Of a stretch of 64,000 bases of DNA, positions 1-64,000 are shown one piece after another. Location of the stretch: assembly GCA_958009085.1 (NCBI GenBank), contig OY253688.1:186001-250000 (forward strand), read 5' to 3'. Numbering within the stretch: the first letter of the stretch is position 1; each line of letters opens with the position of its first letter. Source of the stretch: Protoeuglena noctilucae (taxonomy: Eukaryota). The notes below the pieces were generated by a model. That model had not been told where the DNA came from. It ran no database searches and worked only from the letters and a program-made list of their open reading frames with translations. A program made the translations under genes and the position numbers.

Positions 1-1469
1 CTTGACCCCCGCCACGGCGTCCCCGTCCACGTCCGCGACGTCCATCAGCACCTCACGGGCCATCATGCTGAAGAAGACGAAAGCGGCGGGCCCGATGACG
101 ACCGGGTGCGCCAATGCCTGGCCGGCCGCCGCTGCCCCGGCGGCGATGGACGCCGCGATGGTCCCCGCAACCACGGCGTTCTTCAGGAAGGCGATGCGCT
201 TGAAGAGCGGGGTGTAGAGGAGCGTGGCGACGCACGACGCCGCGACGATGCCCCGCACAACCCAGCTGTCGAGCATGCAGGCGCCCGCCAGCACGGCCGA
301 GTAGAGGCCCAGGCACAGGAGCACCACGTGGTCCTTCTGGACCGTCCCGCGCACCAGGGGCTTGTCCGGGGCGTTGATGGCGTCGTTGCGCATGTCGAAG
401 TAGTCGTTGAGGGCGCACGAGGCGAGGGCCACCCCCGCAGAGCACCCCGCCACCACCCACACCTGCGGCGAGGCGAGCGCCGCCAGGCTCCGCCCGCCGC
501 CCGCCCACGCCCCCAGGATCGTCATCAGCACGCTCGGGCCGTAGTTCTTTGGCCGCGTGGTGCGGAGGAGGTCCCGCAGCACCGTGGACCCCTCTGCTCC
601 GGACCCCAGGTCCCCCAGGGGCACCGACAGCCCAGCCGTGGCACCCTGCGGTCAGGGGTGTGCAGGGAAGACGTCGAGGTCGCGTGAGTAACGACGCCAG
701 GTTTTGAAGGCTCGCAACGGTATGCATACGCACCACAGGGCTCATGGGACGGCTGGTGGGAAGGGGCCCCTCGTCGCCCAGGAGGCTCCCTAAGAAGCTG
801 CGCTGCACGGTGACCGTCGACGCGCGCCGCGACGACATGACGCTGCGAAGGGCGAACTGCGGGGCAGACGGAGCGGCCAAGGGCCGAGCACGTTTGCCAA
901 CGGAAAGCCGTGGGGCCACCTCTCACGGCGCAGGTCGCAACGAGGGCACCTTGCGGTCTCCGATGCGCCTGCCCGGACCGCGGAGGTCGCGCGACAGCCC
1001 GTCGCTGTGGGTAGCGTGGGGGGGTGCCCCGGCCTCCGAGAGCGTCAGGGGCGTGAGCTGGCACCGGGCGGGCCGAGAGCGCTCCCCGGGACCGCGGAGA
1101 TCGTCCCGTAACATCGTCCAGTCATCTCCCTCCGGACCAGGCACCCGCGCGCCGGCCGAGAAGGCGCTCACGCGGACGTCCGGCAGAGCCGCCGCGGGCT
1201 TGCCGCGCCGCACGCGACGACCCGGCCCGCGCAGGTCGGCTTGCAGACTGCGAGTGTCGGCGACGGGCGGGGAGGGTAAGGCCGCGATACGAGAGCCGGC
1301 GCGTCTGTCAAAGGACCGAGAAGCCGGCCGCACCTTCCCCGGCCCGTGGGTCCCGCGACGGCCGGACTCGCCGGCCCCGACGGCGGGCTTGGATTGGGAC
1401 GAGGGTTACCACTCGCGCCGGACGTCGCGCGGATGCGCAGCTCCAGGATCTCCTCCAAAATGGTCGCAT
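1..1469 (-). CDS. UbiA-superfamily prenyltransferase, DGGGP-synthase-like; 3' end lies outside the window
   Basis: The exon at about 1-645 reads LLRTTRPKN...ALNDYFDMRNDAINAPDKPLVRG...LYTPLFKRIAFLKNAVVA...MAREVLMDVADVDGDAVAGVK. This contains both Asp-rich UbiA motifs plus hydrophobic helices. Upstream exons splice in frame via GT-AG introns (about 646-732, 857-949, 1007-1171, 1248-1333) to an Arg/Ser-rich N-terminus. The start is uncertain (ATG at 1469, 1550 or 838). Confidence 0.8.
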
Positions 1470-2360
1470 GCGCCCGCACTGCGAACGATGTGCCCCACGG
1501 TCATTGCCATCGGAACGGCGAAGCGGTCGATCAGGGGAAGGCGAAGACATCACCGAAAGGAAAGGGGAGCGCGGTCTTTCCCTGGCGGCCCGTCGCCCGG
1601 GACGAAATACCTAAAAGGGCGCACGCGATGACATGCCAAAAAGTCTGCACCCCACGGAGCCTCGGGCGCAGCTGTTCAGAAATTAGAGACCCCGAAGATC
1701 ACGCGAGCTCCGACAGAGCGGCGTCGATGGCCCGCAGGCCGGAGAAATGCCGGGGGCGACCTCTCCAGTTTGGGGCCCCCGTTCGCTCGCAGCTGCGCGT
1801 GCCCTCGAGCGGGCAGGGCCACAGCCGAGCACGAAACCGGCGACAAGGCGATTGAGCGCTCCAAACGCGACGCGCGGGGCCCACCTGGCCGTTGGGGCGC
1901 GGGCCTCGCGAGGCTTCCCGCCCCGATCGAGGGGCTCGAGACGCGCATCCCTCTCCGCGGCGTCTAATTTGAAATGTCAGCGACCCGACACACTCCCGGT
2001 GAGACCTCGCGCGGCGTTTTTTGGGGGGAAGGGGGCTGAAGCTCCGGCCCTTGACGCGTGCGTGACCTCCTGATAGCAGCGCAGCGTGATCCGGTAGCGG
2101 TTTTGAGCGGCGAGAGCGACGCGGTGGCCCCAACTCGCCCGCGGTTGCCACGTCAGTGGGCGCCCGAAACTCTGTGCCGGGCGTCGACAGCACGGGAGGC
2201 CCATCCGCCTCCACACGACGGCTTGCATCGGTATCGACGCCCGGCGCAGCGAGTGTTCTTCGCGATTCAGTCGCTGGGGCAGCTGGACGAGCGAGATATC
2301 AGAAAGAGAGCCCGCGCACCGTGTCAGCGCGCGGCTGCGGGGCGTGGTAGCGCGGGACCG

Positions 2361-5281
2361 ATGAATGGGAAGGAGATGCGGCTGTCGGGGCTGGAGCTGG
2401 ACTCGGGGGCGCAGTACGACATGGGTTTGACAAGCCCTTCGCCGCGGCCCATGGGCGACCGCGACCGGATCCTCAGCGACCTGCGCGCCGTGTGCGCCGC
2501 GGATCCGCCTGCGCTGAGCGTCTCGCCTGTGGTCAAGCCGTACCTGATGCGGGCGCGGAGCATCCATGACAACGCGGAGGACTTCTGCGCCCCGGTTCCC
2601 AGCAACCTGGGGCCTGGGGCCAAGGCGAGGGGCGCGGGGGGCGGCATCGCGTTCGGGTCAGCGGAACGTGGGGACAGAAGCCTCACGATGGCGTCTGACT
2701 CGCCGCTTTGCTGCCCACTTGAGAAGGGCGTCACAGGCCGCTGTGGCCGCGCGAGCCCGAGACCCCGAGGTCGCGTTCCCCGTCGCTGCAGATGGCTGGT
2801 ATCGAGGCGCGACTTCAAGAAGAGCAGCAGATGCTGAGCAACACGTCTCTGCGGGGGTCCGCGCAGGAGATGCTCAAAGCCACCCCCAAGGGCACGCAGA
2901 CGCATTCGCGGCAGGGTGCGCGGCGCTCTGTGCGCTGCTGTTTCACATCAGGAATGTGTAGATGGATCGTTCGTGCGCTGTTGATCGCTGCACATTCTCC
3001 CCCCCGCCCCTCCACCGCTGTAGTGAACAAGAAGGCCTGCCAATTCCACGAGAACGACCTGGCGGAAGTCGTCATTGTGTGCGAGGTGACGCGAACGCCA
3101 CGGATGATTGAGACGTCGCGCGTGCCGGGCCTGCAGCAACCGCAATCCTCCCCTCCCACACCGCGTCTCTTCTGCGGCTCGCAGCCCGAGGGCGCGTCCG
3201 TCATGATGGGCGGCCTGCACCCGCGCTCGTCTCTCTTCGAGCGCCCCCTGAACCTCGCCCAGGCGCGCAAGCAACACGAGAACTTCCGTGAGGTCATGCG
3301 CACCATGGGCGTCAAGGTGCTCACCGTGCGTGACATCCTGAGGTGAGGAACCCGGCGCGGGTGTGCGGATATCGCACAGTGCGCGAGGGAGCTTATGGCC
3401 CTGACACATACCTCGTAGGTACGTGTCACCTGACTCGAGACGTGTGCCTGCAGGTATGCGGCGGAGCAGAATGTGCGGGCCAGGGTGGAGCTGGAGGAGT
3501 TTGCGCTGGGCGCGCTGCAGTACAAGCTCAAGGACGGCGTGGACGCCAGCGAGCTGGGGTCCGACCTGCAGTGGTACCTGTCGGACGACTACAAGCGCGA
3601 GGTGCTAGAGCAGATGTCCACCGACCAGCTGCTGGACGTCATCATGACGAACCCCACCGTGCACCTGCGGCCGAGCGGGAGGGACACAGGTGCCAGAAGA
3701 GAGGGCTGCGGGGCCGCGCGCTGTGCGTGTCGAGGAGGCGTGCAGACCCCAGTGTGCGTTCGGCCGTCCCTGCAGGTCTGAACCCCGAGTACACCTTCGC
3801 CCCGCTGGCCAACCTCATTTACAGCCGGGACCAGCAGATCACGACGGCCAAGGGCATCGTGATGGGCCGGCTGCGGTCGTCGCAGCGCCAGCGGGAGGTG
3901 GCCATCATGCGCCTGTGCTTCCTCAAGCTGGGGATGCCCGTGGTGGGCGAGATCGCTGCCCCGGGGTACCTCGAGGGCGGGGACTTCTTCCCGGCCGGCC
4001 CCGAGCTCTGCCTCATCGGCGTGGGCCTGCGGTCGAACATGGAGGCGTGCCAGCAGCTGATGGAGCGGGACCTGCTGGGCACGCGGTGCGTGGCGGTGGT
4101 GAGGGACGACTTTGAAAAGCACCAGGACCGCATGCACCTCGACTGCGTGTTCAGCATCCTGTCGGACGACTGCTGCATCATGCTGGAGGACATGATGGGG
4201 GAGACGTCGCCCACGCGGCGCCTGGTGGACGAGTACGTGCGCGACCCCATCTCCGGCAAGTACACGGTGAGTGGCGCAGAACGCATGGGGTGCCGCACAA
4301 CCTCTGGGTGGCGCCTGTGCCAGGGAGGTGCAGGGGCTATGGAGGTCATGCATGGCTTGATGACGCGGCAGTGGCGGAGAGGGGTGCCGGTGTCACGAGA
4401 AGACACCGCTGATGCCTTGATCGTGAGTCTGCTATCGTTCTTGCTTCGTCTCAGCTGGCCCGGTCGAACGTGGAGTTCAGCCGCTACATCCGCGCCAAAG
4501 GCTTTAACATCATCCCCGTCAGCGGCGCCGACCAGCTCAAGTACGGCTGCAACATCCTCAACCTCGGGCAGAGCACGATCCTGTCCGTGCACGAGAAGAC
4601 AGCGCGGCAGGTGAGGGGCGGTGTGGCACCTGGGTGGCAATCGCTGGAACATCCATCGACACGTCATGCGTGAGCCTGGCATTGGAATGCGTGCCTGAGT
4701 AGTAGTAGTGCCAACACGGTTGCGGTTGGCAGCCGCACATGAATGGCAGCACATGTCTCGCTGCCCCTGTGTGCAGATCACGCGGTCCCCTCACTTCAAG
4801 GGCGACGTCTTTTTCGTCGAATTCGACGCCATCACGAGCATGTACGGCGCGGCGCACTGCTCGAGCCAGATCGTCAAGCGATCAGGTGAGGGGCATGGCG
4901 ACCTGCATGGCTGTGCCACGAGGGGCTACCTGGGTCATTCGATGCAGCTGCCTGACACATTCGCAATGTCAAGCCATTTGCGCCCTCAGCAGAGGAGGCA
5001 GCGGCCTTGGAGATAAATGAACCAGTCTTCGTTCCCCATCGTTGCCTCACGATCACTGATCCTCTCTCGCCGCCCTCGCAGCGTCCCGGTGGGTGAACCG
5101 CGCCAAGCACTCCATGGCCTCCGGGATGTCGAGTGGGGGATCGGGGGCCAAGACGTCGGCCATGACGGTGCCCTTGGGGAACGGCAGGGCCACGCCCACG
5201 CGCGACGACGGCAACGTGTCCACGAGCGCGCCCTTAGACTTCAGCAGCCTGACGGAGGCCGCGGGGGAGCTGCAGCTGTGA
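2361..5281 (+). CDS. ADI1: Arginine deiminase (amidinotransferase superfamily), 9 exons
   Basis: Spliced product contains CQFHENDLAEVVIVCEPE, SLFERPLNLAQARKQHENF, NLIYSRDQQITT, LEGGDF, DRMHLDCVF and catalytic MYGAAHCSSQ. There are 8 introns; the first is GC-AG (2625). Confidence 0.9.
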
Positions 5282-5659: not shown

Positions 5660-7700
5660 CTAGGCCAGCGCGAACTTGAGCTTCCCGCCGTCCTTCTCGT
5701 ATCGCACTTTCTTGTCGGTCCGCACGGCCTGAATGATGAGAGCCTGGTCAGGCAGGGGGACGAGCACACGTGAGGGGACGGCCGAGACAGGTGAACGCCC
5801 CATGGACCATCCATGCACACGGAACAACCGCCCCCTCATACCATCTCTGCCTCGCGCACAGCAAGTACCCTTGCTACCGCATGTGAACTAACAGACGCCC
5901 ACCCTCTCCCTTCCACCCACCTTGAACGTCTCCTGGTGGTCTCTCCGCGACATGTCCAGCCCCAGCTCAGGCACCAACTCATCGCGGGTGAGCGGCCGCC
6001 CCGCCCGCCCCAGCACCCGCACGAGGTCCTCCACCGTCGCCCCCCGGCCCTCGCCCTCCCCCGCCCGGCGCTTCCGGGCTTTGCCCTCCCCGTCCTCTTC
6101 AGCCTCCCCGTCCCCGCGCCCCCGCTTGCCCAGCCCGGCCTTGGCAGCCCCAGACTCCTGGGCAGGTGCATTGGCCTGTGCCGCCTCTTCCTCTGCCCCC
6201 CCTTCCTCTTCCTGCAACAGCGACACGCACCAGGACTGTCATCTGTGGAGCTCATACTAAGCCAGGCCAGGCGCAGGTTAAGTGTGGCCGACGCCCCCAT
6301 GTGCCGCCACCGTCAGCCCCCAACGCGCTCACCTCCGCCTCCCCCTCATCGCCACTGTCTTCCTCCTCCCCTTCCTCTTCCTCGTCGCGCCCGTCGGCCT
6401 CCTCGCCCTCCTCCTGGGCCGCAAAGGAGCCAGTCTTGCAGCGTACATTTCACAGGAAACGCCAACGCTCGTTCTAGCCAGTGGGTGGCATGGGAACAAG
6501 CTAACAGGTAACTACGGCGACAGGATATCTGCCCACGCGCCACATAGTCACACTCTCGCTCCCGGCCCCACCCTGTCCCCACCTTGTCCACCTTGGGCGG
6601 CTTGGGCACCCTCCGCTCATCCTCATCGTCCACGTCCTCGTCCACATCCACCCGCACGCCACCCTCGGCCCGGCCCAGCTCCACGTCGTCGTCCGATCGC
6701 GCCATCTCGTGCTCCCAGTCCTCCTGCGCGCCCTCACAACCGACAGCTGAGGCACGAGATGGCAAACCCACGCGCGCGTCAGTCACATCACGTGCCCCGA
6801 CTGTGCAAGACCTGCCCTGCACAGTGACCTAGCCAAGCAGTTAGGCTTCAAGATCAAGACCCATACCGGCACCTCACCTCCACCTTAAACCCCATGATGT
6901 CCCCGTCCTCCCCCGTCCCCACCACCTCTTCCTCCTGCGCACCCATCACCCACTGACCCGCCCCGCCCTCATCCCCGTCGTATCCACGACCCCCCAGATC
7001 CTCCTCCCCGCCCCCGCCCCCGTCGCCCTCCTCATCTAACACCCCGCCCCGGCGTTGTCCGCGCCCGCTCTTGGCCGCAGCCTTGGGCTCCTCCGGTGCC
7101 CGCACGACCTTGGCGATGCGCTCCAGACGCCGCTGCTGCTCCTCCTCGCTGGGTCCCGCGCCTGCGGAGGGCTCCCGCGGCAGCGCGGCCGCGCGGAAGT
7201 TGTACCAAGCGTCGACAGGGGTGAGCGTCCACGCCTGGGCGTCCTTGCGCAGGACGAAGAAGACCGGCGCGTCGGCCGCGGACGACCAGAACCCCACCTC
7301 CCTCGATCTGCCCTGCTCGTGGTTGTCCAGGGTGATGATCTTGGGCGCGGAGACCTGCAATTGATCGCAGCGACGGAGCTTGTCTCCCTTCGATCCGCGC
7401 AGCCCTCCCCCGTTGCCGCGATGGACAGTGCGCCAACCGTGGTCACCGTCTCAGCCTCCGTCGGGGGCCTCTTCCCCTTGCGAGGAGGGAACTCCTCGAT
7501 GTAGGTCCAGCCCGTCTTGGCGAAGTCCGGGGCCCTGCGGGGTCTCGCGAGCGATGCGTGGTGAGTCTACCGCAGCTGAGACTGTCATCCAGGAGGTGCA
7601 TCGCACGCAAGAGGGCCAACCTTGTCGTGAAGGACGCTATCCGTGTCGTGGAGCCTTCGTAACCCCCGTCGGGGCCGTGCAAAGGCTCCTCCCTATCCAT
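5660..7700 (-). CDS. Transcription initiation factor IIF alpha subunit (RAP74)-like
   Basis: Contains FFVLRK...WTLTPVDAWYNFR, an acidic linker with DWEHEMARSDDDVE, and a C-terminal winged-helix-like segment (EDLVRVLGRAGRPLTRDEL). About 6 GT-AG introns join the exons in frame. Confidence 0.7.
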
Positions 7701-7999
7701 CGCGCACCACCTGCGATGCCCCGCAACATCTGAGGCGAGAATTGCTCGGAGCCACACATCATGTGGCGGCCAGGCCACATGCGCAGGAGGACTGACGCCG
7801 CACTCTGGTGTGCGACGCATGGCTTCTTCCACGCCGCAGCGCGGCACTATTCCTCGAGACCATTGGCTGCAGGGCCCCGCCTGGCACCCGTCGTTCCCAG
7901 CGTCGCTCTCTTGCTTCGCGCGGCGAGAGGCCTGCTCAGCGTGGTGCTTTGCTGTGACCTGGTCTCGCCGGCGCCGGCTTTCCAAGAGCATGGGCAGCC

Positions 8000-10900
8000 A
8001 TGTCGGACTCGGATGAGTTCTCCGTGGACGATTATGGGTACTCGTCGGCGGAGGACGACTTGCTGAGCCCCGAGGCCCCAGCCCAGGCGAGTACGGGGGC
8101 CCGAGGGGATAGCGGCCGCCTCTGCGATGCGCCGTCGATCTCGATTGGGAGCATGGCTTCCGTGGCAAATGCACGGCGCGCCTCGCGGTCGGCGAAGCGC
8201 TCACGGAGCACGGGCGATGGTGCGTGCTTTGCAGCGGGCTAGGTACCATGTGCTGGACAAGGAGCGGATGCACGAGGTCAAGGAGGGCGCAGTCGAGAAA
8301 GTCCAGGGCGTCTTGTGCGTAAGCCGTGACCAGGCGGTGCGGGTTCTGCGGCATTTCGGGTGGAATGTGACCCGGGCGAACGAGTCGTGGTTCGTCGACC
8401 AGGTGACGCGCGGTTCCGGCGAGGGCCTCGGTCGCGGGGCCTTGGCTCGACGTACGACTTGTGCGCGTGCCCTGGAGCCCCACGCGACCTGCTTTTCCCG
8501 CGCATTTCCTTTGCAGGAGGAGCTCTCGCGCAAGCTGGGCATCGTGCACGGGGAGCAGCTGCGTCGGACTCAAGTTTCGGGAACGTGCAACATCTGCTTC
8601 GAGACCACGGAGGCGCACAGGCTCCGGGGAGCGGCGTGCGGTCACTTCTTCTGCACCGAGTGCTGGACAGGGTACGTGGAGGCCAAGTTCACGGAGGGGC
8701 GGGCCCAGGTCCTCGACATGCGCTGCCCTCAGCCCGACTGCGGCTGCCAGGTGCGCTTGGGGATTCGTGCAGCGCGCAGGGGCTCGGTGCGCTGCCCCCG
8801 GGCAGCGGAGCGACCAGCTGCGTTGCGCTGGGATTCCGACGGCCTCGGGACCTCATTCGGTCCTTGATGTGAACTATACAACCTCCCGCAGGTGCTCCCC
8901 GACCTCTACCGGGACCTGGTGGACGCGTCTCTGCTGGGCAAGTATGAACAGTTTGAGACGGTGGACTTCGTCGAAGCGAGCAAGGACATGCTGCACTGCC
9001 CGAGGGCCGGATGTGACAACGCGGTGAAGTGAGCCCGGGGGCGTCGGGCGGCCTCTGGCCTTCGCTGCCGCTGCGACGTGACGTGACGCATGTGCGCCTA
9101 CTGCAGATTGGTGGACTACCTGGGGAGCTCAGGCACCGAGGCGCTGCCCGTCGAATGCGCGTGCGGGTACATGTTCTGCAGCCGGTGCCTGTCCAAGTTC
9201 AACGCCGAGGTGGAGCCGCACGGGCCGGCCTTCTGTGAGGACGTGCAGGAGTGGGCGCGGAAGAGCAGCACCGAGGCCGCGAACATCCAGTGGATCCTCG
9301 TCAACACCAAGAACTGCCCGAAGGTGACGTGCATCGCGCCATCGCGCCAAGTGGAGACGTGCCGTCCGACAGTGCCCGCAGCCAGCGCACGACATGCCGG
9401 GGGAGGGATTGTCCTGTGATTGCTGGCGTCGCCTCCCGACCTCGTGTGCAGTGCCACAAGCCGATCGAGAAGAACAGCGGATGCATGCACATGACGTGCG
9501 CCCAGTGCCGCCACGAGTTCTGCTGGCTGTGCCTGGGGGACTGGTCGCGGCACGGGGAGGGGTCTGGGGGCTTCTACAACTGCAACCGGTGAGGCCAGAA
9601 GCTAGGCATACCACGATCGCTGTGTGGGCGGTGTCGCGGTCGCGGCCACCCTCTCCAGGTCACCCGTCCTGACCATGCGTGCCCTGGTCGCCCTCGCTGC
9701 CGTCGCATGCCTGGCCCACACTCCCCCTGCATTCCCGCCACACCCCGCAGCTACGAGAAGGCCAAGCTGCGCGGCCAGTACACGGACGAGCAGCGCAAGC
9801 GGGAGAACGCCAAGGCGGCCCTGGACCGGTACGTGCACTACTTCGAGCGCTTCACCTTCCACGACAAGGGCATCCGTAAGGCGCGGGCGGACAGCGCGGC
9901 GGTGGAGCAGGACAAGGAGAAGATCGCCAACGTGACGGGGACGCCCCCGGGGCAGCTGCGGTTCCTCACGGATGCATGGGAGACGGTGGCGCAGGTGAGG
10001 GGCAGAGGATGGATGCGTGGGTGCATGGGAGACGGTGGCGAAGGTGAGGGGCAGAGGATGGATGCGTGGGTGCATGGGAGACGGTGGCGAAGGTGAGGGG
10101 CAGAGAGGCAGCTGCGGTGACCAATTGACATGGTGGAGGCAGTGTGGAGGAGGCGCTTGCCTGCGTATGCGCCGAAGACGTGCTGCTGTGTTGGACTGGC
10201 GAGAGGGTTGAGAAGCGCATGTGACGCCTGCTGAGTTCCTCTTGCTTTCCGTGTTTGCCCAGGGCGCGCGCACGCTCAAGTGGTCATACTGCCTCGGTTT
10301 TTCCAAGTTCACGGACACGGAGGGGGACGACGCCCGCAAGAAGGAGCTGTTTGAGTTCAAGCAGGTGGGCGGCGTGGCAGGGTGGTCTGAATGGTATCAG
10401 CTCAGCTCAGCAGGGAGTGGGGATGACACAGGCGGCACTGGCGACCCTCACGGGCGACTTCGGGTAAAAGATACGACACTTTGCGTTGCGTCCCTCCACA
10501 GGGCGACGCGGAGCTGTCGCTGGACCGTTTGCGCAAGTGCCTGGAGGACGGGGTGCGGAAGACGCTGGCGCGCCTGGACCACGACTCCCTGGACAGGCTC
10601 GCCACCAAACACGACGAGATTGAGCGGGAGTTCCACGCCCTCAAGTGAGCGGGGTCCAGGGGTGTGTCAGTATCACACCGTGTTAGTTGCAGGACATTGC
10701 CGAGCCTTTGTGGTTGTGTGCACACCCCGCCATCCGTCGTGCTGTGACGCGTGCAGGGTGGAGCTGATGAACCTGGACCAGACGACGCGCAAGTACTTCA
10801 CGGAGATGATGCGGGAGCTGGAGGGCGGGGTGGGGCAGATTGGGGGGCCGGAGGACTCGGGGGCGGCAGCGGGGCCGTCGGGGATGGGGCACCGGGGTGA

Positions 10901-11212
10901 GGGCAACGTAGGGCACGTGCACGTGTCGGCATGCGAGCTGTTTGCGTCGGGAAGTAGGGGAAGCAAGCAACGATCGACGCACGTCATGGGAGGGGTGGTG
11001 GGTTGGTGGGGGTCGGGGGCTAAGTATCAACGCACAGTTGCTTTTCTCCATGCCCCTCCGCAGGGACGGAGATTGCTCGGAAGCGCAAGTCGGCCAGCCT
11101 GACGGGCACCGCGGGGGGTGACGGGGCGGCCGCGGCATCGTCGATGGATGAGGGCGGCAGCAGCGCGTACGCAAAGCCCACAGGCACTCACGGGTCCCGG
11201 CATCGGCAGTGA
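8000..11212 (+). CDS. ARI: ARIADNE-family RBR E3 ubiquitin ligase
   Basis: Acidic N-terminus; UBA-like [12 protein letters not shown]1 CNICFE...[10 protein letters not shown]...CPQPDC; IBR HCPRAGC...[15 protein letters not shown]2 [33 protein letters not shown]; Ariadne domain [11 protein letters not shown]...RTLKWSY. There are 10 introns. Confidence 0.93.
9973..10105 (+). repeat. 49-bp tandem repeat (about 2.7 copies) spanning an exon/intron junction of ARI
   Basis: The unit gcatgggagacggtggcg(c/a)aggtgaggggcagaggatggatgcgtgggt starts at 9974, 10023 and 10072. Confidence 0.95.
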
Positions 11213-11379
11213 AGCGCGGGGTGCGGCCAGCGGAGCTGGCGGGTCTAACCCAGGCGCTGTTGTTTCATCGCCCTGTGGGCAGCTATGGCTGCGTGTGGGC
11301 CTCTCTATCCACTTCTGGGAGGAAGCACTTCAATTCCAATTGTCAGCTTGAAACAGGCAATTCGTTGTCGCCTCAGCGA

Positions 11380-15766: not shown

Positions 15767-15906
15767 TTGATGGCCGCGTGCCGCATGCCTAGGCGCCTAT
15801 TCCACGCTCCGCTTGCTCTCCATGCTCTTCACACGCGCTACGCTGCTTGCTTGGCTGGCATCACAGCCTACCCGCCGCGCTGCGCCCGTCTACGGGCCAA
15901 AAAGTT

Positions 15907-46156: not shown

Positions 46157-46166
46157 ATCCCGGTGT

Positions 46167-50609: not shown

Positions 50610-51070
50610 ATGCACCCCGTTCTCCAGGAGCCCTTCTCGTGGGCGCTCGTGGCCTTTCACGCGCTGCTCCTCTCCCTCGTCGTCGCGCTGAGGGCCCAGA
50701 CGACTCTGCAGCTCGCCCTCCTCTGCATTCTGGCCCTGCTGCTCGTCCTGTCGCGTCGCCTCAACGAGTTTGGCAAGCAGAACTGGCGGCTGTTCGCTTC
50801 GCGGGACTACTTCGACAAGGGCGGGCTCTTCCTCACTGCTGTGTGGGCCGTCCCCCTGCTGCTCGTCATGCTCGTGCAGGTGGCCTGCGGTGATCCGTCT
50901 GTTCAAATGCGGCGCGCTCGAGCGCATGCACGTCGCGGAACTGGCAGCGTCGCGGCTATCGCGGGAACGGCTGGCCGCAGGTCGCCATCTACCTAAGCTG
51001 GGTGTCGCACGAAATGGTCAAGCTCAAAGCCATCGAGATGCGCGGGGGGCGGCGGAGGGGTCGGCAATGA
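50610..51070 (+). CDS. TMEM18: TMEM18 family membrane protein
   Basis: Contains EPFSWALVAFHALL...RLNEFGKQNWRLFASRDYFDKGGLF...PLL and a last exon VAIYL...MVKLKAIEMR. The 5' end is uncertain; an upstream exon is possible. Confidence 0.82.
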
Positions 51071-52997: not shown

Positions 52998-55900
52998 ATG
53001 GCCGGTCACCTCGCCGCAGTGCACTCTGCCGCGGCTTCCCTGTGTGCGGGGGCTTCCACCGTGTCCCTGGGTCCGACGCGGGCGCACCTGCCCCTGTGCC
53101 CGAAGCGGTCAGGACTCGATCGACCACGGCTCCGAGCGCTCGCGTCCGGCGTGGACCAGCGCGGCCTCGCCGTCCCCAAATATGACGACCACCGGTTTTG
53201 CGGGGGTGACCTCCGCGGCGGGGAGATCATAGCCGTGGACTCCGCGACCGGGGAGTGGCAATTCAACTTCCCCGTCGAGCCCGCCGCGTTGGCAAGTCGC
53301 CGGGCCCCCGCTCAGCCGCGCGCCGGCGTCGCGACCGTCTCATCTGTGTACGCTGAACAGCGTCCCCTGGTCGTCTCCGCAGCTGGGGCTCCGGGGGCGC
53401 CGTGGTTACCTGGACCCCGAAATCGTCAAGGCGTACGAGGACATGGTGGCGTACCGGCCGCGGGAGGGGTACTCCGAAGAGGCGATGAAAAGCAGAGAGC
53501 ATCTGCTGGCGCAGGCGCGGGACGCGCTGGTGAGCGACGCTGCGCCGGCCGTCTGCTGCGTGGCATATGCCGGGGTGTGGGGTCGCTAGTCACTCACTCA
53601 CCGCACACGAGGCCGCGTGCTTCCGCAGCGACGGCCGGGCTCGCTGGGAAGGAGTGCTGCGTCGACGACTGTCTCCTGGGCCCATTTGCCGGGGGGCCTC
53701 GCGCTCCTGGTGGATGCGAGGGAGTACGACCTGGTGATTGAGATTGGCAACCGCGTCCTGCGCACGGGCCGCGCGGGGTCGGCCGAGCCCGATGTCGTCC
53801 TGGCCATCGCCCTCGCGCACTGCGCCCTCGCCCGCGACGCCCTCGACCAGGGCGGTAGGGTGGGCTTGGGCGTCGCCCGCCTCGAGGAGGCCCTCAGCGT
53901 CCTTCGTGCCGCGCGGCCTCCCCTGGCGCCGGGGCTGCAGCGAGAGGTGGGGTACTTTGCGACCGCCCGGTCTCGGCGCGTGGCTACTGGTTTTTGGAAT
54001 GCGCGGGTCCCACAGCGCGCCCCCTCGTCGCAGGTGGAGGCGGCTCTGGAGCGCCTGCTGCCCCACAGCCATGTGGAACAGTTGGGAGCGCCGATCAATG
54101 CCGAGACTCTGGCGGCGCGGAAGCAGGCCCTCATGTTCATCGCGGGGGCGCTGTCCCGGGGCAAGGCTGCAGAGGAGGGCGTGACGGACCGCGCCTTGCG
54201 CATAGCGATGGTGAGCTCGCTGATTCTCCTGGGGAAGTGCACTGCGTCGCCTGCCGGGCTGCTTCGCGCATGCCAGACAGCGCCATCACCCGCAGTCCAA
54301 GATGACGGCGGAAGAGGTCGTGAGCCTCGTGGACTGGGCCGAGGTCGCCGCCTCCCCTAGCAGCGTGCCGTGGATCTACCACGGCATCTTCGCGCGCGTG
54401 GTCCAGGCGCTGATCGTGACCGGGTTCAGCCGGCGCAGCCCGGAACACATCAACCAGGTGGGGTGTCCGCACCTTGCCAGGTCCATGCATGCCTTGCGGC
54501 TGTCCGAGCCCCCGTGTGGGTTGACCCGCGCGTGGCACCCTCGCCTCGCAGGCCAAGGAACTGGCGCGGTCCCCGCCTGATGGATCGACGCTGGAACTCG
54601 AGCGCTGCGTGTGCTACATCCTCCTGGGCGACGTGGACCGCGCCTTTGCCATCCTCACGACGGAGGAGCGCCGTCGCTCACAGCGGTCGGCCCAGTCCCT
54701 TGGTTCGGCGTCCCGGCCGGGCCTGGTCGCGCCCACGTCCGTGATGCGCTACATCCGGAGCGTGTCGAGTCCTGACGACCTGCTGCCGGGCTTGTGCATG
54801 TGGTGGTGAGACGCAGAGAGTCTCGAAAGTCACCTCGCTTGCTGCGATTGCACGATGCTTTGACCACTGCCATAGGCATGGGGCCCAGCCAAGTGTCCGC
54901 GTGGGCGTGCATGTCTCGCATGAGGCATGCAATCATCCCCGCCCCCTGCAGCGAGGACTGGCTGGTCGTGACGGGAGAGCGCTTTCGTGGGAGTGAGGGC
55001 CTCGACCCGTCCCTCACTGCGTACTTTGAGGACCCCCAGATGGCGCGCGTGCTCGCCGAGCTCTCCCACTCAAAGCCCCTCCGCACTCTGTGGGACTCCC
55101 TCTCCGACGCACAGGCAGCCCTGCGCAGAGTCATGGACAAGGTCTCGGGGCAGAGGGGCGGCAGGGCCTCGGGCGCAGGGCAGCCCAGGGACGTGGAGCT
55201 CGCAAGGAGGGCCGCGATCGCTGCGAGGGACAACGGGGGGGACGCCCGGAACCCCGACTCGCTGCTATCGCACGCCATGGGGAGCTTACAGAGGGAGGCC
55301 GAGGGTGGGGGCGGTCCAGATGCGGCGGATGCCGGACCCGCGACTGCGTCGGCTCACGCGTCTCCCGGCGGCAGCACAGGCTCTGCTGCCAAAGACCGAC
55401 TCGAGGGACTCCTGACGCGTTCGCGGAGTGTGGCCGAAGGGGCCTCCCCACGCGTCCCAAGGTTGCGCCTCCGGCCTGTCCACTTCCTCCTGCCTGCGGC
55501 GGCACTCGTGACCCTGACCGTCCCACTACTAGGCAGGCGCCCGTGGAGCCTGGGCCCGCTGCGCAGCGTGTCCTTTACCCTTCCCGCCGCATGGCGTTCC
55601 TCGGACACGCAGCGTGCCCAAGTGCGATCGGACATCGAGGCCGCCATCAGGTGCGCAGCCGGGCCCGGGTGCAGGCGCGTCACCATGCCTCCTGCGGGGA
55701 CCTGTTAGACGGCGCGCGATCACTGTGCCGCGCAGGTCCTGGCAGCGGATCAAGCACGGCATCATGGAGGGCAGCCTGTCGGCGAAGGAGCTGCCCACGG
55801 TCCTGGGCGGAGACTACCTCTCGTCGTGGAGGCTCAAGCACGCGCAGGCGGGGCACGATGCGTCCTGCACGTGGCGATACGAACTGCGGAGGCTCGACGT

Positions 55901-56192
55901 CACGAGTATTCGGCAGCAGCCGGATGGGCGCGTCGAGGTGCGTTGAGTCGCCAGCGCCACGTTGCTCGCCGCTCTGAGCATCGTCATGTGCCGGCGGTCC
56001 CGCCTCAAACCGAGCGCGATCTGTCATGTGCAGGCGGACGTCACCATCAACGAGAAGGCCACGCTGCACTTGGCAAATGGGACGGTCGCGGACACCTACG
56101 ACGGGCCCTATCGCATGACATACCAGCTGGAGAGGGGTGGGGACGGCTGTTGGAGGATCGTCGCGGGGCACGTGCGCTTTGGCAGCTACTGA
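52998..56192 (+). CDS. ARC6: ARC6/PARC6-like plastid division protein (J-like domain, TM, C-terminal DUF4101-like)
   Basis: Transit peptide, then IVKAYE...[57 protein letters not shown], a TM near 55490 and a C-terminal W.YELRRLDV...VTINEKATL...YRMTYQL...WRI. There are 8 introns. Confidence 0.85.
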
Positions 56193-56253: not shown

Positions 56254-58428
56254 CTACTGGCTGAACCTCGAGTTGATCAGCTTGTCCTGCCCCTTGGTGA
56301 CCTTCACGTACTCGATCGTATCCCCGACACGCATGTCCGACTGGGATGGCAGAAGCGTGGGGGTCGGGTGAAGGTGCTGGGCGCAGCTGTCGTATGGGCG
56401 TTCGCCCCTGTCAGGCACGCCGCGCACTCTCACCAGCAGCTCCTGGCCCTGCGTGATGTACCCGAACACGGCATACCTCCCGTCGAGGAGGTTGGAGCCC
56501 GTGGGCGTGAGCTCCGACTCCTTCAACAGGAAGAACATCTGCGACGACCCCGAGTTGGGCTCGAACTCGGCCCGCGCCACGGCCAGGGTGCCGAAGGCGT
56601 TGAAGGGCAGGGCGGGCAGGTCGTTCGCGCGTCCCAGCTCCTCGAGCGTGATGCCATAGACAGGCTCCTGCGGTCGCGAGCCCACGGGTCGCCTCGGGCC
56701 GCCACCAGGTTCGGGCCAGTTCGTTGGGGCATGCAAGGACTTCCATGGGTATGTAAGAGAGCTGCGTAGCCCTGCGTGCAACCGCACCTTGTCCATGGCC
56801 GGGCGGACCTCGAATGGGATGCGACGCACTTCCTTGGTGTCCGGGTCCACGAAGCCCTCTGCGGGCCCATCGGGGTCGCCAAACTGCACCACGAAGCCGT
56901 CCGCCCGCTGGATCGTCATGCCGTCGTAGAACTTGCGCAGCACCAGGTCCATGAAGTTGCCGGCCGAGACGGGGGCGTTGTAGCCGTCCAGCACAATCTG
57001 AGGGCATCCGACCCGGGCGCGGTCGCTGGCGCCCCGTCCCACGTTGTCATCGCGCTCTTGCCGCCACCCCTGCCACGCTCGCCTTGAAGACCCCTCCCGT
57101 GATGCCGTCCGACGCCACGTCCTTGAGACGGATCTTCATCTCCAGCTCCGCGCGGCCCCGGAGCTGAGGGAGGTTGCCGTACTCGGCCGGCACCTCGAAG
57201 GGGAAGCCCTTTACCATGGCCTCCTCGATCGCCGTAACTGCAGCGACCACAGAGGACGCCATGGCAGGTGCAGACCCCGCAAGTCAGCGTTGCATCCCAG
57301 GAGCTTGCACGTGTGACACGCACCTGCGCTCAGGCACTTGGCCTGCTCCAGCGGGATCTCCTGCTTCCTCTCCTCCTTGAGCACCACCTGCAAGCGGCCG
57401 GGCGGGGCAGGGGCCATGACGTCGACCCAAGCTCGCGGCCATGCCCGCCCCCACAGGCGACTCTCACGTCAAAGTCCTGCAGCGCTGCTTTGAGGTCCGC
57501 CAGGGCACGCTGCCCGTCCGCCTTCTTGTCATCGGCAAAGTCCCTGACGATCTGGGCCTCGCTCTTCTCCAGCGTCCGCTCCGCGTTGCTCACTGCCCGC
57601 CGGATGGGGCCGAGGGACTTGCTGCCTGCGGGGGGAGCCAGGGAGGGTCTTCTTGCTGTGAAGCTCCCGAGCAATGCTCCCCTCGCACCTGCCCTCGGCA
57701 GCATGACCTACCGGGGATGCGCAGCGCCTCGGAGATGGACTCCAGCTCCTTCTGGATCACGCGGATGGGCTTGTCGTCGATCTGGAGGGCGTACCGCAGG
57801 ATGGCCTGAGGGTTCTTCACCCCGCTGTTGACGGGGAGGGACGCCTCGGCGCTGAGACCCCCCACCACCGGCAGCGTCATCAGCCCCGCCAGGGCAGTCG
57901 ACAGCACTGCATTGCGCCAGGAAGGCGCACCCCCCTGCGGGCATCATCAGGAAGCTGGATGACGAGGATCCTCCCTCACGGCATTAGAACTCCAGCACCT
58001 GGGGCAGGGTCGGTGACATGCATCCCAAGCGCAGTATGTGACGCGCGGGAGTGCCCAAGCCACGCATCCAATGACGACGTCGCAAACGCGCTCAGGGCGG
58101 GCGTGCAGGGCCGCTGGCAAGTCACAGGAGACCGGGAAAAACGCGTTGGTCTTCCAGCGCCCGACCTGGGTGGGTCGCAGACAGCCGCGCTGGGCGTCTT
58201 CTCTTCTCCAATACCAAACAAGTCATCGCTTTAGCACGCACAGGGCCGCCATCGGCGCGGGGGACGCTGCCATCGGCGTCAAGCGCGCTGGCACGGAATC
58301 ATCGGGCCGTTGAGGCCCGCTCAGCGCCTCCTCGCCTGGTCTGCACGACCCGATGCGGCGCAAACGACACGTCGAGTGCGCTGGTGTAGATGGGACGCGG
58401 GGGGAGCGGGCGCAAGCGACATCGCCAT
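56254..58428 (-). CDS. CYP38: Thylakoid lumen cyclophilin CYP38/TLP40
   Basis: Contains [67 protein letters not shown] and [29 protein letters not shown]. The first exon MAMSLAP...RRVVCAASG joins in frame via a GC-AG intron of about 400 nt. Confidence 0.95.
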
Positions 58429-59224
58429 TTTGCTGGTGCAGAGCGAGCAGAGCGAGCGCTCCCGCGGCGGTCTCGCACTGGCCCCGTCGCGCTTTTCTTG
58501 ACGAGATGGGATTGGCTGGGCGCACTCGCGATCTCGGGTTGCGGTGAAGCCAGTCGGGCGGGCCCATACCCTACTGGCGCCTCGGGGAGTCGCGCTGGGC
58601 GGGCTGCGGCGCGTCGGATCCGCAGATCGGGTCAAGGAGTGGCCCCACAGAGAGCGGTAGGGCTTGGTTTGGTGAGTTGACATTTCGCCCCGACGCAGCC
58701 CGCTGCTGAGCCACAGCTCCAGCGGCGTGGGGACTTTCGCTTTCAACCACGGTGGCGAAGGCTCCCTGCCTCGAACGGGCCTTTGCGGGATCCGTTTTTC
58801 GTTCCCCCCCGCCGCGGACGAAACTTTCCGGTTTTCCAGTCGTTGACGGACGCCTTGTTGACGGGCGGGCAGCGGGAGCGAGGGCTCCGGCCCGCCCGGA
58901 GCCCACGGCCCGTCCTTGTGCGCCACCCTGTTCGCCGCGGTCGTTGAGCGCCGCGTGGTGCCCGTCCTGGCCTTTTCCGCTTCGCTGAGGCGCAACATTC
59001 CTCGAGCTAGCCTTGCGCTTGCCGCGGCGAACCCCGATGCAGCGCATGGCGGCGGGAGGGCGCCCCACAGTGCCGCAGGGTGGCCTGCGGCCTCCTGGGG
59101 CCTCTTGCCCCCTCACCTGGCCGTGCACCCTCATCTGTTGCGTGTCAAGCTGCAGTCCCTTCCGCAATCGCAGGATCGCCGCGCTCGCGAGCGCGGGAGA
59201 GCGGAGGGGATGGGCGACTCGGCG

Positions 59225-61111
59225 ATGGCGGACCCGAGCTCCCTGCTTGGGAGCACCATCAGCCTCATTTCCCAGAGCGACATTAGGTGCGCCGAAAGCC
59301 GCGAGCCCTGCGAGCCCCGCCCGGGGCGTTTGCCGGTGGTGAGCACGTGGCGGGCACCTGCGCAGGTACGAGGGCGTCCTATGCAACATCGACACGGCGG
59401 AAGCGACCATCTCTCTCAGAGACGTCCGCACGTATGGAACGGAGGGGCGGAGGAACGGGCGGGAGGAAGTCCCCGGGAGCCATGGTGCGCGTGCTCGACA
59501 GCGCTGCCCTGCGTGCACGAGGGAACCCGGGTCGACGCAACGGCTGCTGTTTTCTGGCCGGTGCAGAGGTGTACCAGTTTATCGTGTTCCGGGGCCCGGA
59601 CATCAAGGAGCTGCAGGTGGTGCAGCGGGCCCCTGAGCCCGCCCCGGCACCCAAGTTTGAGGACCCTGCCATCGTGTCCGCCGTTTCACAGGGGCACCGG
59701 GGGTACCCAGGGCAGCCGTTTGGCATGCCCCCCATGGGACCGGGGGGATACGGGTTCGGCTACGGTGAGGGCGGACGGCGTGGCAGGCCAGGCCAGGGGA
59801 TCTTCGTGGGCGGTGAGTGAGCTCTGACTTCTGCGCTTCTCTGCGCAGGTCCGGGGGGACCGAACCCGATGATGTACAACCCCATGGGCCACCCTGGCCC
59901 CATGCCGGGGGGGCCCATGCCCGGGGTGCCCATGCCCCCGTACGGGCCCGGCCCGGGCCCTCACATGGCGGGCCCCCCGCCCCATCACGCGGGCCCCGCG
60001 GCTAACGGGAGGTTATCGGGTCCCAACGCACCCCCAGCGCCAGCTGTGCCCGGCGCTGGGCACGCGCAGGCCCCGCCGGAGCACCCGAGGAAGCCTACGG
60101 CCCAGAAGGGGGAGCAGGCGCCCGCTGTTGCGAGCAAGGGCCCCATGGAGCCGAGGGGGGAAGCGGGCGGCCACAGCGCTGCCGATGGACGCACTCGGCA
60201 GCCGGCGAATGGCGCGGAGGGCGGACTGCGCGTGCCGCCCCCCCAGACCCCGCCTCGGCAGCCCCGCAACAGCCAGCCCAGGCCTCCCCAGGGGCCGCCC
60301 CCGGGCAACTCGGAGGGATCTTGGCGAGGACAGGTGGGCGGGGTCCTTTGAGATGTTGAGACGAGCGGCAGTGACGGCGTGGTGACGCAACCGCGTGCCC
60401 CGCCTGGCCCCGCAGGTCGACCCGAGGCCGGCGCCGACGGTGCAGGTGGTGAGCGCGCACGGCGGCAGGGGGGGGGCGGGCGAGGAGGGCGCGGGGCGAG
60501 GCCGGGGTCGGGGCCCGCGGCCCGGGCGCGGGCACGAAGGCGGGAACCCGGCAGCGTATGCCACCGTGTCGGTGGCCGGTCCCGCCCCGGGCCGCGGGGC
60601 CCAGGGCGGGGCCCGTGGCCGCGGCCGTCGCGGCTGGACCCCGAACGGCAACGTCATCGAGGCGCCCAAGGAGGACTTCGACGTCGAGGCAGCGAACGAA
60701 CGGTTCCAGCGTGAGGACGGCGGTCCGAACGGCGCGGGCGACACGCAGTCCGTGTACAAGAAGGCGAGGCGCACCCCGGGTGGCTTTGATGCGAGGGCGG
60801 ATGGCACTGGAGGGCGTCGTCCCTGCTCCTGGCCCCCGGTGAAGTCCGCTTGACTTTCCCCCTCACGGTCCGCCTCGCAGGACGAGTTCTTCGACACGCT
60901 GTCGTCGGAGCCGGCTCAGCCCATGCAGAGCCTGGACGTCCACCGCAAGGAGATGGCCGAGCGGCGTCGCGTGGACGTCGAAACTTTCGGAGACATCGCG
61001 GCATCCTACCGGTCCGCACACCTCAGGGGGCGGGGGAGGGGCCGGGGCCGGGGCCGGGGCCGGGGTGGTTGGGGTCGTGGCAACAACGGGCAGGGCGGAG
61101 AGCGCTTTTAA
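59225..61111 (+). CDS. DCP5: Decapping 5 / LSM14 (Scd6/RAP55) P-body protein
   Basis: LSm14 domain LLGSTISLISQSDIRYEGVL...YGTEGRR...YQFIVFRGPDIKELQV; FDF-like EDFDVEAANERF; FFD box YKKDEFFDTLS; TFG box VDVETFG; RGG tail. Confidence 0.93.
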
Positions 61112-61151: not shown

Positions 61152-61986
61152 TCAAAGTGCGTTTCCGTCGCGTGTGATGCGGCGCAGCAACACTTCGAAC
61201 AGGACCGGCTCGTCCTTGTGGGCCAGCAGCTGGCGCTGCGTGCTGAATGTAGGCGGTTGCGGCTCGGCGTCGGGGCGAGCTTGGTATCCCAGGGACGGTG
61301 GGACCAGAATCCTGCGCTTGCCACCCTTCCTCATCCCTTGAAGGCCCTGTGGACGGGTGCGTCGCGGTGCACATCATCCGGCGACAGGCCAGGCCCGGAC
61401 ATCCATGCTGCCGCGCGTGCCCCGCACCTCGCTGAGCCCGGCCACGGTCGGGGCGCCCACGACGAGGGACACGGGCCCGACGGGTACGTCGCTGGGCTGG
61501 AAGGACACGCCCTCGACCGTGCTGTAGATGAAGTACCCGTTCGATCTCCGCAGCACGTAATCGAGCAGGACGACGTCCCCCGGCTCGACCACTGCGCCGT
61601 CGCCGTCGGCGATGATTTGGACACGCACGCCACTCTCAAGCCGCAGGAACCTGGGCTGGTCCTCCGACTCCGGCACGGCCAGGCCAGGGCTCGTCCAATC
61701 CCCTGTGCACAAAGGAGCACATAGTACGGATGAGGTCCCCGGCACGACTGGACAAGCCAGCACCACCATGGCCTCGCTGACCTTGGCTCGGTTTCACCAC
61801 AGACTTCGCGGACGCAACCGGGACCCCCAGAAGTCCCGCGAGCGGCGCCCCGATGGCCACGAGCCTGCGATGAGCAGCGCATCCGCAGAAACGGCGCTGC
61901 ACCGGCGGCCTCTGAGGCGGTCCGGGGGCTGCACGACGGCAACACGCAGACCATGGCTTCGATCGGAGCAAAAGGATCCCGTCCAT
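61152..61986 (-). CDS. FKBP16-1: Chloroplast FKBP-type PPIase, FKBP16-1-like
   Basis: Twin-Arg lumenal-type signal, then LESGVRVQII.DG.G...GDVVLLDYVLRRSNGYFIYSTV, GMRKGGKRRILVPPSLGY and RQLLAHKDEPVLFEV. There are 2 introns. Confidence 0.85.
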
Positions 61987-62364
61987 CGCCGTCCCGCACC
62001 GCCAGGAACGCGCCACGACACCCACAGTTGGTGGAACGCAATGCGTGGTTGTCTTTTTACCTTCAACTTCAGGAATAGGACAAGGTACGGTCTGAGAGTA
62101 CCCTTTTGCTTCCATCTCAGAGAAGATGATCTCCAAATCCTCGCCGGTTCAGCGAGGAATGGCCGGCTAGCGGCTACTACCCGGGCTAGGGTTCTTGAGG
62201 GTAGCGTACCCACTTAGCCTGCTAGCCTGAGCTGCCTCTTGAAGCTCTCCCCGGCGGAAGATAAAGAAAGTCGCAGATTGCAGATTGCGTAGAGCTGACT
62301 GCGCACGACGTGGCCTCTACAGCGCGGAAAAGGCATGTCTTGAACACGCGCGACGCGGGGCGTC

Positions 62365-64000
62365 ATGACGGCCTCCCCTCCCTCGGCACTGCCCGGAGTC
62401 GCAGACTTGTTGCCGAAGAGCGCCACGTCGCTCAGATGGTGAGGCCATTTCAGCAACGCGGTGGCCACCGCTCGGCTTGGGCTTTTCACTGCGTCTCGTC
62501 GCGCTCTTTTCGCAGGCACCTCATCGCTGCCCTCGTCGCCGGCTTTGCGGTGTCGTGGACGGTCTCGAGGGTCTGGGACACGGCCTGCGCGGGGGCGAAT
62601 AGCCGAGGTGCTCTCCCTGAGCGGTGCCTGTGCGGCAGCGTGACCGAGGCGGACAGCGCGGGACGTCCGCGTGACGATGTAACAGTCAATAATCGCTTGT
62701 CCTTCCCCGCAGGCTGCGCGATCGTGTTGTGGGCGGCGTACCCGCTATGGCTCGTCTGGAGGGCCGCCAAATGGCTGGTGGTCGACCCGCTGACAGCGCC
62801 GATCGCGTCCCTATGGCGTCTGGTGTGTGTGAGTCTGGTGGAATACTTCGCAGCCCTGGACCCCGCGACGCAGCTGGTGGTGGCCTTTGTGGGCGGCGCG
62901 GCGGCGATGGTGGTGCTTTCGGCTGTCGTCATCGTCCGCTTCGTGCGAAGCATATTCCGGCCGGACCCGAACTCGGCACCGCTTGTGCCACGTCGATGGC
63001 TCAGGCATCGCCAGGAGGCGTTGCGGCAGGTCCTGGTGAGTCCACCACGGGACTGCACTGCGCTGTTCGGACCTGCTGTTCCGTCGTGGCGCGACTCGAA
63101 AGCAGCGGAGGAAAACGCGTGCGGGGAGCTCTATATGAGGGGAGCTTGACCCACCCCCACGTCTTGCATGCACTTCAGGAGACCAAGGGGGAGCACGCGT
63201 TCCCTCCACTGCCCTCCGTCCCTGGAGTCAAGCAGCCCTTCCTCATCGAGTACGAGGCGCACAGCCGCGCGGGTGAAATGCGCGGGTGGCTCTGGGTCAT
63301 GCTGGGCTCCGACTACGACGGCACCTTCAGCAAGACATGGCCGCCCCTTGCTGAGGCAAGTTAACTCTGCCGCCCAAATGTTGCCCAATGCTGCTGGCAG
63401 TGTAGTGCATCACATGCGTACCTTTCATCGCACTACGACCGGATATAAAGAGGGTCGCTTGCGGGAGATTTGCGTCGGCATGCTCCATGACTGCACGCAG
63501 ACACCCGATGCCCCTGCGCGGCGGTGGTATTGCACACTTCGACTGGCTGAAGGTCCCCCTATGGCGACCTCCGCGTCGGAGGAGGCTCCTGGCGTGGCCG
63601 TCCCAGGCCGCAGCCCGGGACCTGGGAAGAGGGAGCCGGCGGAGCGTCGCGGCCCTGTGCTCGTCCTTTCTGAGGTGTGAGGACCTGAGGAGGGAGCCCA
63701 TTCGACGGCTGGAATGCTTCAGACAGCGCGCGCTCGGACAATGTCGAGCGTGGACGCTTTCGTGACTGCCCTCTCACGGCCTGTTTGCATGCAGGTGCAC
63801 CCTGATGCGCCTGTCGCACCTGGCAAGCGCCCCTTGGAGATTTTCGTCGACTTGACAGAGTGCGAGGCGAGCATCTACCGGGAAGGCCAGATGGCGGACG
63901 CTTATGTCTTTCAGAAGCGCGGCCCAGTCCTGCTCTCCCATCCCCGACGCACGCTCCTCGGCTCCGATCGCGCGCTGTGTCTCTTCGCATACAATGCTGC
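62365..64000 (+). CDS. Membrane-anchored PH-like domain protein, probably TEX2-like (SMP lipid-transfer family); 3' end outside the window
   Basis: N-terminal hydrophobic helices, then MRGWLWVM, RRWYCTL...VLVLSE and VDLTECEA...QKRGPVLLSHPRRTLLG...LCLFAY, resembling the PH region of plant TEX2. Five introns splice in frame. Confidence 0.6.

Follow-up and report, generated by a model that had tools for sequence, protein, structure and literature searches.

The genes of the 64,000-nucleotide (nt) stretch of DNA analysed here (contig OY253688.1 of Protoeuglena noctilucae, positions 186,001 to 250,000; hereafter the window) alternate between the two strands almost without interruption. The order of the 27 genes that we reconstructed is - + - + - + - + - + + - + - + - + - + - + - + - + - +, with the strand switching at 25 of the 26 neighbour pairs: 13 pairs are divergent, 12 are convergent and a single one, CtIP followed by VWA with a gap of 646 nt, is tandem. 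As many as 24 of the 27 genes are members of convergent pairs, and the longest strictly alternating run comprises 17 genes (genes 11 to 27). A preliminary description of this DNA had already proposed the same order, the same 13/12/1 division and a chance probability of about 4e-7; our independent map, built from Pfam matches, gene-finder models, RNA and homologues, turned out to be identical, and the recomputed probability of at least 25 switches in 26 pairs under random orientation was 4.0e-7. The one-sided 95% lower bound of the local switch rate is 0.83. The alternation is real and extreme.

The gene map was rebuilt independently of the gene list in the preliminary description. All 420 stop-to-stop open reading frames (ORFs) of at least 100 aa in the six frames were compared with Pfam, which fixed the strand of 20 genes, including one (LSM14) under the Pfam cut-off, and a second round using 122 spacer ORFs of 45-99 aa and nine chosen ORFs added FKBP_C (gene 26) and a sub-cut-off thioredoxin match (gene 18), so that Pfam anchors the strand of 22 genes, two of them with bit scores below the cut-off (Table 1). 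In parallel, a self-written, splice-aware gene finder, combining a three-periodic Markov coding model with GT or GC donors preceded by G and with CAG acceptors, was run on each strand separately with neighbours uncoupled. This gave 28 models, three of which were merged into a single Ariadne gene, as the IBR domain continues across the first break, so that 26 genes remained; the 27th (gene 27) was added from a homologue in another organism, P0122, which is 45% identical over query residues 154-265 (E 3.1e-13; query ORF 62265-63146 on the + strand, scored against 1.84 billion representatives). A further match, P0121, was discounted as support for gene 27, as it only reproduces an ORF of the DNA analysed here. 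Two other gene-finding designs were dropped, namely a codon hidden Markov model without splice sites, which fragmented the frames, and a version with self-trained splice matrices, which chained genes into giant models. All 27 genes have at least one line of evidence beyond the open frame.

RNA evidence came from four marine metatranscriptome runs of a single study (three samples at most), whose contigs were mapped on positions 4001-24000; there, 14 of 47 splice joints were listed, and stretches of low contig depth were excluded as evidence. All 14 listed joints are of the GT/GC..AG type and canonical on one strand only: six in the PX gene (+), one in the CHCH gene (-, GC..AG), five in gene 8 (+) and two in the PsbY gene (-). 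The predicted introns 5744-5920 of gene 3 and 11776-11966 of gene 5 are likewise canonical on the - strand only, and they adjoin ends of RNA contig pieces at 5742 and 11774, respectively. Gene 10 is covered at 22271-22923 by a piece of a 1932-nt RNA contig, and the model of the EHD gene equals the 576-aa protein P0001 (99% identical) apart from two small length differences.

The preliminary description had named additional same-strand genes in the spacers as an observation that would speak against the pattern, but none emerged from the coding-signal scan, from Pfam or from the search for tRNA genes and Rfam families, which found neither in the window. Outside the models, only four 150-nt segments had a coding score above 6, corresponding to an upstream SPP exon with a Pfam match, to two parts of gene 27 and to positions 63201-63350; no credible family was found among the 122 short spacer ORFs, except for two that extend known genes. 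The last of the four segments belongs to a weak coding signal on the + strand at 63160..63940, made up of the parts 63160-63340 and 63800-63940, with scores of 9.7 and 6.8 in two + frames and none on the - strand. The tail ORFs at 63.16-63.94 kb, including ORF 63681-63998, gave no homologue and no Pfam family, and the Atlas matches were not usable or at chance level. This signal may represent a 28th gene, which would give a second tandem pair (two in 27).

It is also conceivable that annotation error has inflated the pattern, either through small same-strand genes missed in the larger spacers or through the merging of same-strand neighbours, as models from the gene finder that join such genes would conceal tandem pairs. 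The gene finder does err (the Ariadne gene split in three, a 1-nt exon in gene 2 and a doubtful last exon of SPP), spacers of 1.2-1.5 kb exist and the tail signal at 63.16-63.94 kb is unexplained. However, the domains found in each multi-exon model are compatible with a single protein, the EHD model is matched by a protein derived from transcripts, the scans of the spacers gave neither coding signal nor family match, and two or three added tandem pairs would still leave a switch rate above 85%. The largest model, gene 17 (8.9 kb), has a continuous coding signal, and all its introns are 75-170 nt long, which leaves no room for a promoter inside; presumably it is a single gene. For SPP, the end was set at the ORF stop (35075-35077), since the predicted extra exon scores only 3.8, while the Mpv17 exon in that position reaches 10.9. 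Taken together, we consider it highly improbable that annotation error has inflated the pattern.

The spacers of the two kinds of pair differ markedly in length. In 11 convergent pairs the stop codons are separated by 378, 167, 140, 251, 190, 163, 10, 67, 32, 61 and 43 nt (median 140), and the twelfth gap, between SPP and Mpv17, measures about 190 nt if SPP stops at the ORF stop, whereas the median of the divergent spacers is 668 nt (Mann-Whitney p = 4e-5). Five of the convergent gaps are 10-67 nt long and thus too short for two separate 3' untranslated regions (UTRs) of ordinary length, which supports an overlap of the 3' ends. In addition, RNA contigs bridge the pairs ADI/gene 3, Ariadne/gene 5 and PX/CHCH; they pass from the final exon of one member into the spliced terminal exons of the other and carry introns of opposite strands. 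These are all three of the convergent pairs with listed pieces in 4001-24000, the bridges being assembled contigs and not proof of single overlapping molecules. The shared or overlapping terminators claimed in the preliminary description are in keeping with these data, as the short gaps and the RNA contigs across three pairs support overlapping or abutting 3' ends.

The pentamer TGTAA is the usual poly(A) signal in many green algae. No copy was found within 400 nt after any of the 25 stop codons tested (the stop of UbiA lies off the window), and the entire window contains only 16 copies on both strands.

The divergent spacers measure 219-1522 nt between coding sequences, and nine of the 13 are under 1 kb (start codons being approximate). 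In the spacer between gene 5 and the PX gene, an RNA joint at 13374 places an upstream 5' exon of PX, ending at 13373, within this interval, and less of it is therefore untranscribed than the distance between the coding regions suggests. Divergent spacers make up 15.5% of the window and hold 10 of the 12 copies of the 7-mer AGACCGC, which ranks first among 3523 7-mers tested (p = 3.9e-7, approximately 1e-3 after correction); its orientation relative to the nearer gene is inconsistent. This hints at AGACCGC as a candidate promoter element. The CGCG element TCTCGCGAGA of vertebrates induces bidirectional transcription (Mahpour et al., 2018; PMC6192621), and its palindromic core CTCGCGAG was found five times in the window; divergent spacers hold three of the sites, and the other two are located no more than 250 nt from a predicted 5' end. 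The number of copies is not above chance (5 observed as compared to 3.6 expected), the vertebrate element belongs to CpG islands (PMC6192621), and the likeness is a resemblance only. Shared bidirectional promoters in the divergent spacers are a plausible reading of this arrangement, and the position of AGACCGC is an indirect hint in that direction.

We regard it as probable, though well short of certain, that the window is an ordinary chromosome stretch of a compact, GC-rich and intron-rich marine green alga without a close sequenced relative, in which genes are arranged as alternating head-to-head and tail-to-tail pairs with shared promoters and overlapping 3' ends. Each divergent spacer, approximately 0.2-1.5 kb between coding regions and less between transcripts, would hold the promoter region for both flanking genes, while a convergent spacer would be too short for two separate 3' UTRs, so that both transcripts would overlap at their 3' ends. 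Between same-direction neighbours, in contrast, a single spacer would have to accommodate both a terminator and a promoter, and such genes would be open to read-through; we propose that tandem pairs are rare for this reason, probably via selection in a compact genome against rearrangements that create them. From the layout we infer promoter sharing, selection against tandem pairs and a bias that reaches beyond the window. That the whole nuclear genome forms a near-unbroken chain of such pairs, with a switch rate above 0.9, is a possible but doubtful extension of this reading.

The gene content agrees with an ordinary stretch of green-algal nuclear DNA, as PsbY, ARC6, CYP38 and a TamB/TIC236-like giant gene are typical of it, and the Pfam scan identified ordinary housekeeping and plastid genes. 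The genes are rich in short introns; the 14 with RNA support measure 80-398 nt, 10 of them 80-109 nt, and all start with GT or GC preceded by G and end in CAG. Searching with an EHD exon returned P0001, which is derived from the transcripts of a public run, at 99% identity, then one protein at 79%, and as best named matches green algae at 66-68% (among them a pedinophyte, chlorophyceans and Chloropicon); neither Micromonas nor Ostreococcus was among the EHD-search matches carrying a species name. Since the best named matches reach only 66-68%, the organism appears to lack a close named relative in the collection searched.

For comparison with other genomes, three metagenome contigs of unrelated compact eukaryotes were scored using Pfam-anchored ORFs only, which misses unanchored genes. 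The strand switched at 10 of 13 neighbour pairs in L003, 6 of 7 in L010 and 6 of 9 in L004, amounting to 22 of 29 (p = 0.004 against 50%), and a method based on Pfam anchors thus does detect tandem pairs. Left out were L008, which repeats the gene order of L004, L002, which has the same matches as L003, and ten other loci. A moderate alternating bias seems to be common in such compact genomes, and the window is stricter than the comparators (Fisher p = 0.037). The metagenome scan with UbiA found no relative, the one with EHD gave 15 loci of which none was syntenic with the window, and neither contained a contig of this species.

These numbers bear on whether the window could be a chance extreme of a genome with a moderate alternating bias (approximately 65-76% switches) that was noticed through mass screening. 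Around 250,000 windows had been screened, among which about 0.1 such window is expected even at a switch rate of 50%; at 76%, the rate of the comparators, the probability for any one window to attain 25 of 26 switches is p = 0.007. In contrast, the lower bound of the local rate lies above this range, the difference between 25 of 26 and 22 of 29 has the Fisher probability given above, and the alternating run of 17 genes exceeds the genome-wide maximum of 15 in Nannochloropsis gaditana (Jinkerson et al., 2013; PMC3566019). We consider such a chance extreme quite unlikely.

An alternating bias of gene orientation has already been published for N. gaditana and other photosynthetic stramenopiles (Jinkerson et al., 2013; PMC3566019), a precedent that was absent from the preliminary description; many gene pairs of N. 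gaditana are less than 1 kb apart, and genome compaction together with shared bidirectional promoters was proposed as the meaning. The window resembles that genome in its excess of divergent and convergent over same-direction neighbours (25 of 26 pairs) and in having divergent spacers mostly under 1 kb (9 of 13). However, the bias of Nannochloropsis is weaker, Nannochloropsis is a stramenopile with few introns, and one of its bidirectional promoters has been tested experimentally (PMC3566019), whereas those of the window are putative.

Similar in geometry are the convergent overlapping pairs (COPs) of the marine green alga Micromonas, which have tail-to-tail overlapping 3' UTRs and larger upstream distances. 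In its low-GC regions 316 of 591 and 242 of 738 genes are members of COPs, which lie 900-1255 nt from their upstream neighbours (van Baren et al., 2016; PMC4815162). By analogy, the alternation of the window could be real but regional, marking a special chromosome region of convergent overlapping pairs, set apart by larger upstream spacers, in an otherwise ordinary genome, and the tiny convergent gaps next to a divergent median of 668 nt do reproduce the geometry of the Micromonas low-GC COPs (PMC4815162). On the other hand, Micromonas COPs occupy a low-GC compartment and involve about a third to half of its genes (PMC4815162), whereas here 24 of 27 genes belong to convergent pairs, and the GC content of each 2-kb bin lies between 63 and 74%, so that nothing across the 64 kb resembles a low-GC compartment. 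The genes are also ordinary housekeeping and plastid genes, and we consider a regional explanation unlikely. Judging from the named EHD matches, Micromonas is not a close relative.

In Ostreococcus, transcripts of neighbours on opposite strands overlap and expressed sequence tags (ESTs) of two genes co-assemble (Lanier et al., 2008; PMC2367439), similarly to the RNA contigs that cross the convergent pairs of the window, but only 148 of 1647 EST clusters are affected there (PMC2367439). Compaction and overlap are thus documented in print for Ostreococcus, but no published statement was found that presents strict alternation as one of its hallmarks. The genome of O. tauri contains roughly 8000 genes. 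About 2288 bidirectional pairs have been counted in it (PMC4035068), which by rough estimate is near the 25% expected at random. The statement in the preliminary description that strict alternation is not the general rule fits this count as well as the finding of Micromonas COPs mainly in the low-GC region (PMC4815162), and a literature search, with supplements outside its reach, turned up no green alga for which near-strict alternation has been described.

Several points weigh against the reading of the window as an ordinary stretch built from such pairs. The window was chosen post hoc from a very large scan, and the evidence is confined to these 64 kb of the genome. The RNA consists of assembled contigs from one study that cover 20 of the 64 kb and reveal the strand only via splice sites. 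Gene 17 is assumed to be one gene, genes 3 and 5 are without homologue or family, and the weak + signal after gene 27 possibly marks a further same-strand gene. Furthermore, four divergent gaps exceed 1 kb, and the genes within a pair are not evidently related in function, so nothing points to co-regulation.

The layout is thus known in kind, and the window is an unusually strict local example that adds a lineage rather than a principle. If the pattern held genome-wide (switch rate above 0.9), no alga described to date would match its strictness, and bidirectional promoters together with antisense 3' overlap would be the default mode of expression, with same-direction neighbours near-forbidden. 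Such a genome would offer a natural extreme case of how gene orientation shapes transcription in compact eukaryotic genomes, with regard to promoter bidirectionality, termination between converging polymerases, antisense overlap and supercoiling, and it would be a source of short two-way promoters for algal engineering. The coordinates of all genes, of two convergent spacers and of the motifs are collected in Table 1.

Table 1. Genes, selected spacers and motifs of the window (positions in nt of the 64,000-nt stretch)
Feature	Position	Strand	Evidence or remark
Gene 1, UbiA-family prenyltransferase	1..838	-	PF01040 E 3.8e-24 on ORF 1-651(-); score 86; left end off window
Gene 2, arginine-deiminase-fold (ADI family) enzyme	2361..5281	+	PF02274 E 4e-33 and 5e-06 on two + ORFs; score 212
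Gene 3, acidic protein, no Pfam family	5660..7780	-	Score 144; RNA pieces end at 5742 beside intron 5744-5920
Gene 4, Ariadne-type RBR ubiquitin ligase	8000..11212	+	UBA_ARI1, RING, IBR (E 2.9e-15) and Ariadne domains in order on + ORFs
Gene 5, no Pfam family	11380..12844	-	Score 67; RNA pieces (three runs) end at 11774 beside intron 11776-11966
Gene 6, PX/Vps5 sorting nexin	13732..15766	+	PX E 1.9e-22, Vps5 E 1.2e-09; six + RNA joints
Convergent spacer PX/CHCH, 140 nt	15767..15906		Crossed by RNA contigs with PX + introns and the CHCH - intron
Gene 7, small twin-CX9C (CHCH) protein	15907..16267	-	RNA joint 16060-16150 GC..AG only on -; two C-x9-C motifs in translation
Gene 8, membrane protein, no Pfam family	17136..19282	+	Five RNA joints GT/GC..AG on +; score 72
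Gene 9, PsbY polyprotein (photosystem II)	19534..20833	-	PF06298 E 2.3e-12; two RNA joints CT..AC
Gene 10, CtIP/Sae2-like	21314..23276	+	SAE2 C-terminal domain E 2.8e-08 on ORF 22932-23276(+); coiled-coil 5' exons
Gene 11, VWA-domain protein	23923..26792	+	VWA E 3.6e-10; score 254
Gene 12, Nop10	26983..27676	-	PF04135 E 1.4e-15
Gene 13, EH-domain dynamin-like ATPase (EHD)	28041..30750	+	EHD_N, Dynamin_N, DUF5600
Gene 14, protein arginine methyltransferase	30914..32610	-	PRMT_C E 6.4e-08, PrmA E 7e-06; score 179
Gene 15, signal peptide peptidase (SPP)	33709..35077	+	Peptidase_A22B E 4e-25 and 6.6e-14
Gene 16, Mpv17/PMP22 family	35268..35986	-	PF04117 E 2.2e-15
Gene 17, giant TamB/TIC236-like, ~2480 aa, 15 exons	37223..46156	+	TamB E 2.3e-07 near 3' end
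Shortest convergent spacer	46157..46166		10 nt between stop codons of genes 17 and 18
Gene 18, small thioredoxin-like	46167..46723	-	Thioredoxin E 3.2e-04, 21.1 bits (cut-off 23.5), 46574-46723(-); score 27
Gene 19, ankyrin-repeat protein	47240..48213	+	Ank families E 1e-08 to 1e-06
Gene 20, DnaJ + thioredoxin protein	48281..50002	-	Thioredoxin E 2e-23, DnaJ E 1.6e-18
Gene 21, TMEM18	50610..51070	+	PF14770 E 8.9e-25
Gene 22, PDX1 (SOR/SNZ) pyridoxal phosphate synthase	51103..52329	-	PF01680 E 6.3e-43
Gene 23, ARC6/PDR-type plastid division protein	52998..56192	+	Arm_PDR E 3e-20, ARC6-like_IMS E 2.9e-08
Gene 24, CYP38-type cyclophilin	56254..57880	-	Pro_isomerase E 4.8e-21, CYP38_PsbQ-like E 4e-11
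Gene 25, LSM14/Scd6-like	59210..61111	+	LSM14 E 3.3e-05, 24.3 bits (cut-off 30); score 77
Gene 26, FKBP-type isomerase	61155..61954	-	FKBP_C E 4.6e-07 on 61155-61373(-)
Gene 27, small membrane protein, no Pfam family	62436..63149	+	P0122 homologue; weak + coding signal 62740-62980
AGACCGC in divergent spacers	953, 1571, 16665, 16846, 37004, 47207, 50113, 52373, 52899, 58467		Often extended to AGACCGCG
AGACCGC inside genes	12116, 29299		7-mer count
Palindrome CTCGCGAG	1905, 7544, 17173, 36521, 59184		Five copies

Individual genes showed further features. For gene 3, a homologue search with an exon gave none, and within its acidic region, at 7025-7026, the contigs from each of the four RNA runs depart from the window sequence with long loose ends, apparently because the environmental population and the assembled strain differ there in length or sequence. 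A search of the PDB with the C-terminal ORF of the Ariadne gene gave no match. Among the 14 introns supported by RNA, three (14610-14716, 16060-16150 and 17976-18062) have a GC donor instead of GT, which is a high share. The PsbY gene encodes three near-identical PsbY units, and its RNA contigs contain the alternative joints 19672-20069 and 19987-20069, while one contig steps back by 210 nt, suggesting a variable repeat number or alternative splicing between units. Finally, among the metagenome loci, L004:9019-18377 and L008:3-9143 (GC 65% and 60%, respectively) share the order EHD +, epimerase -, RING + and PsaL -, an alternating block that is thus conserved within another lineage of green algae.

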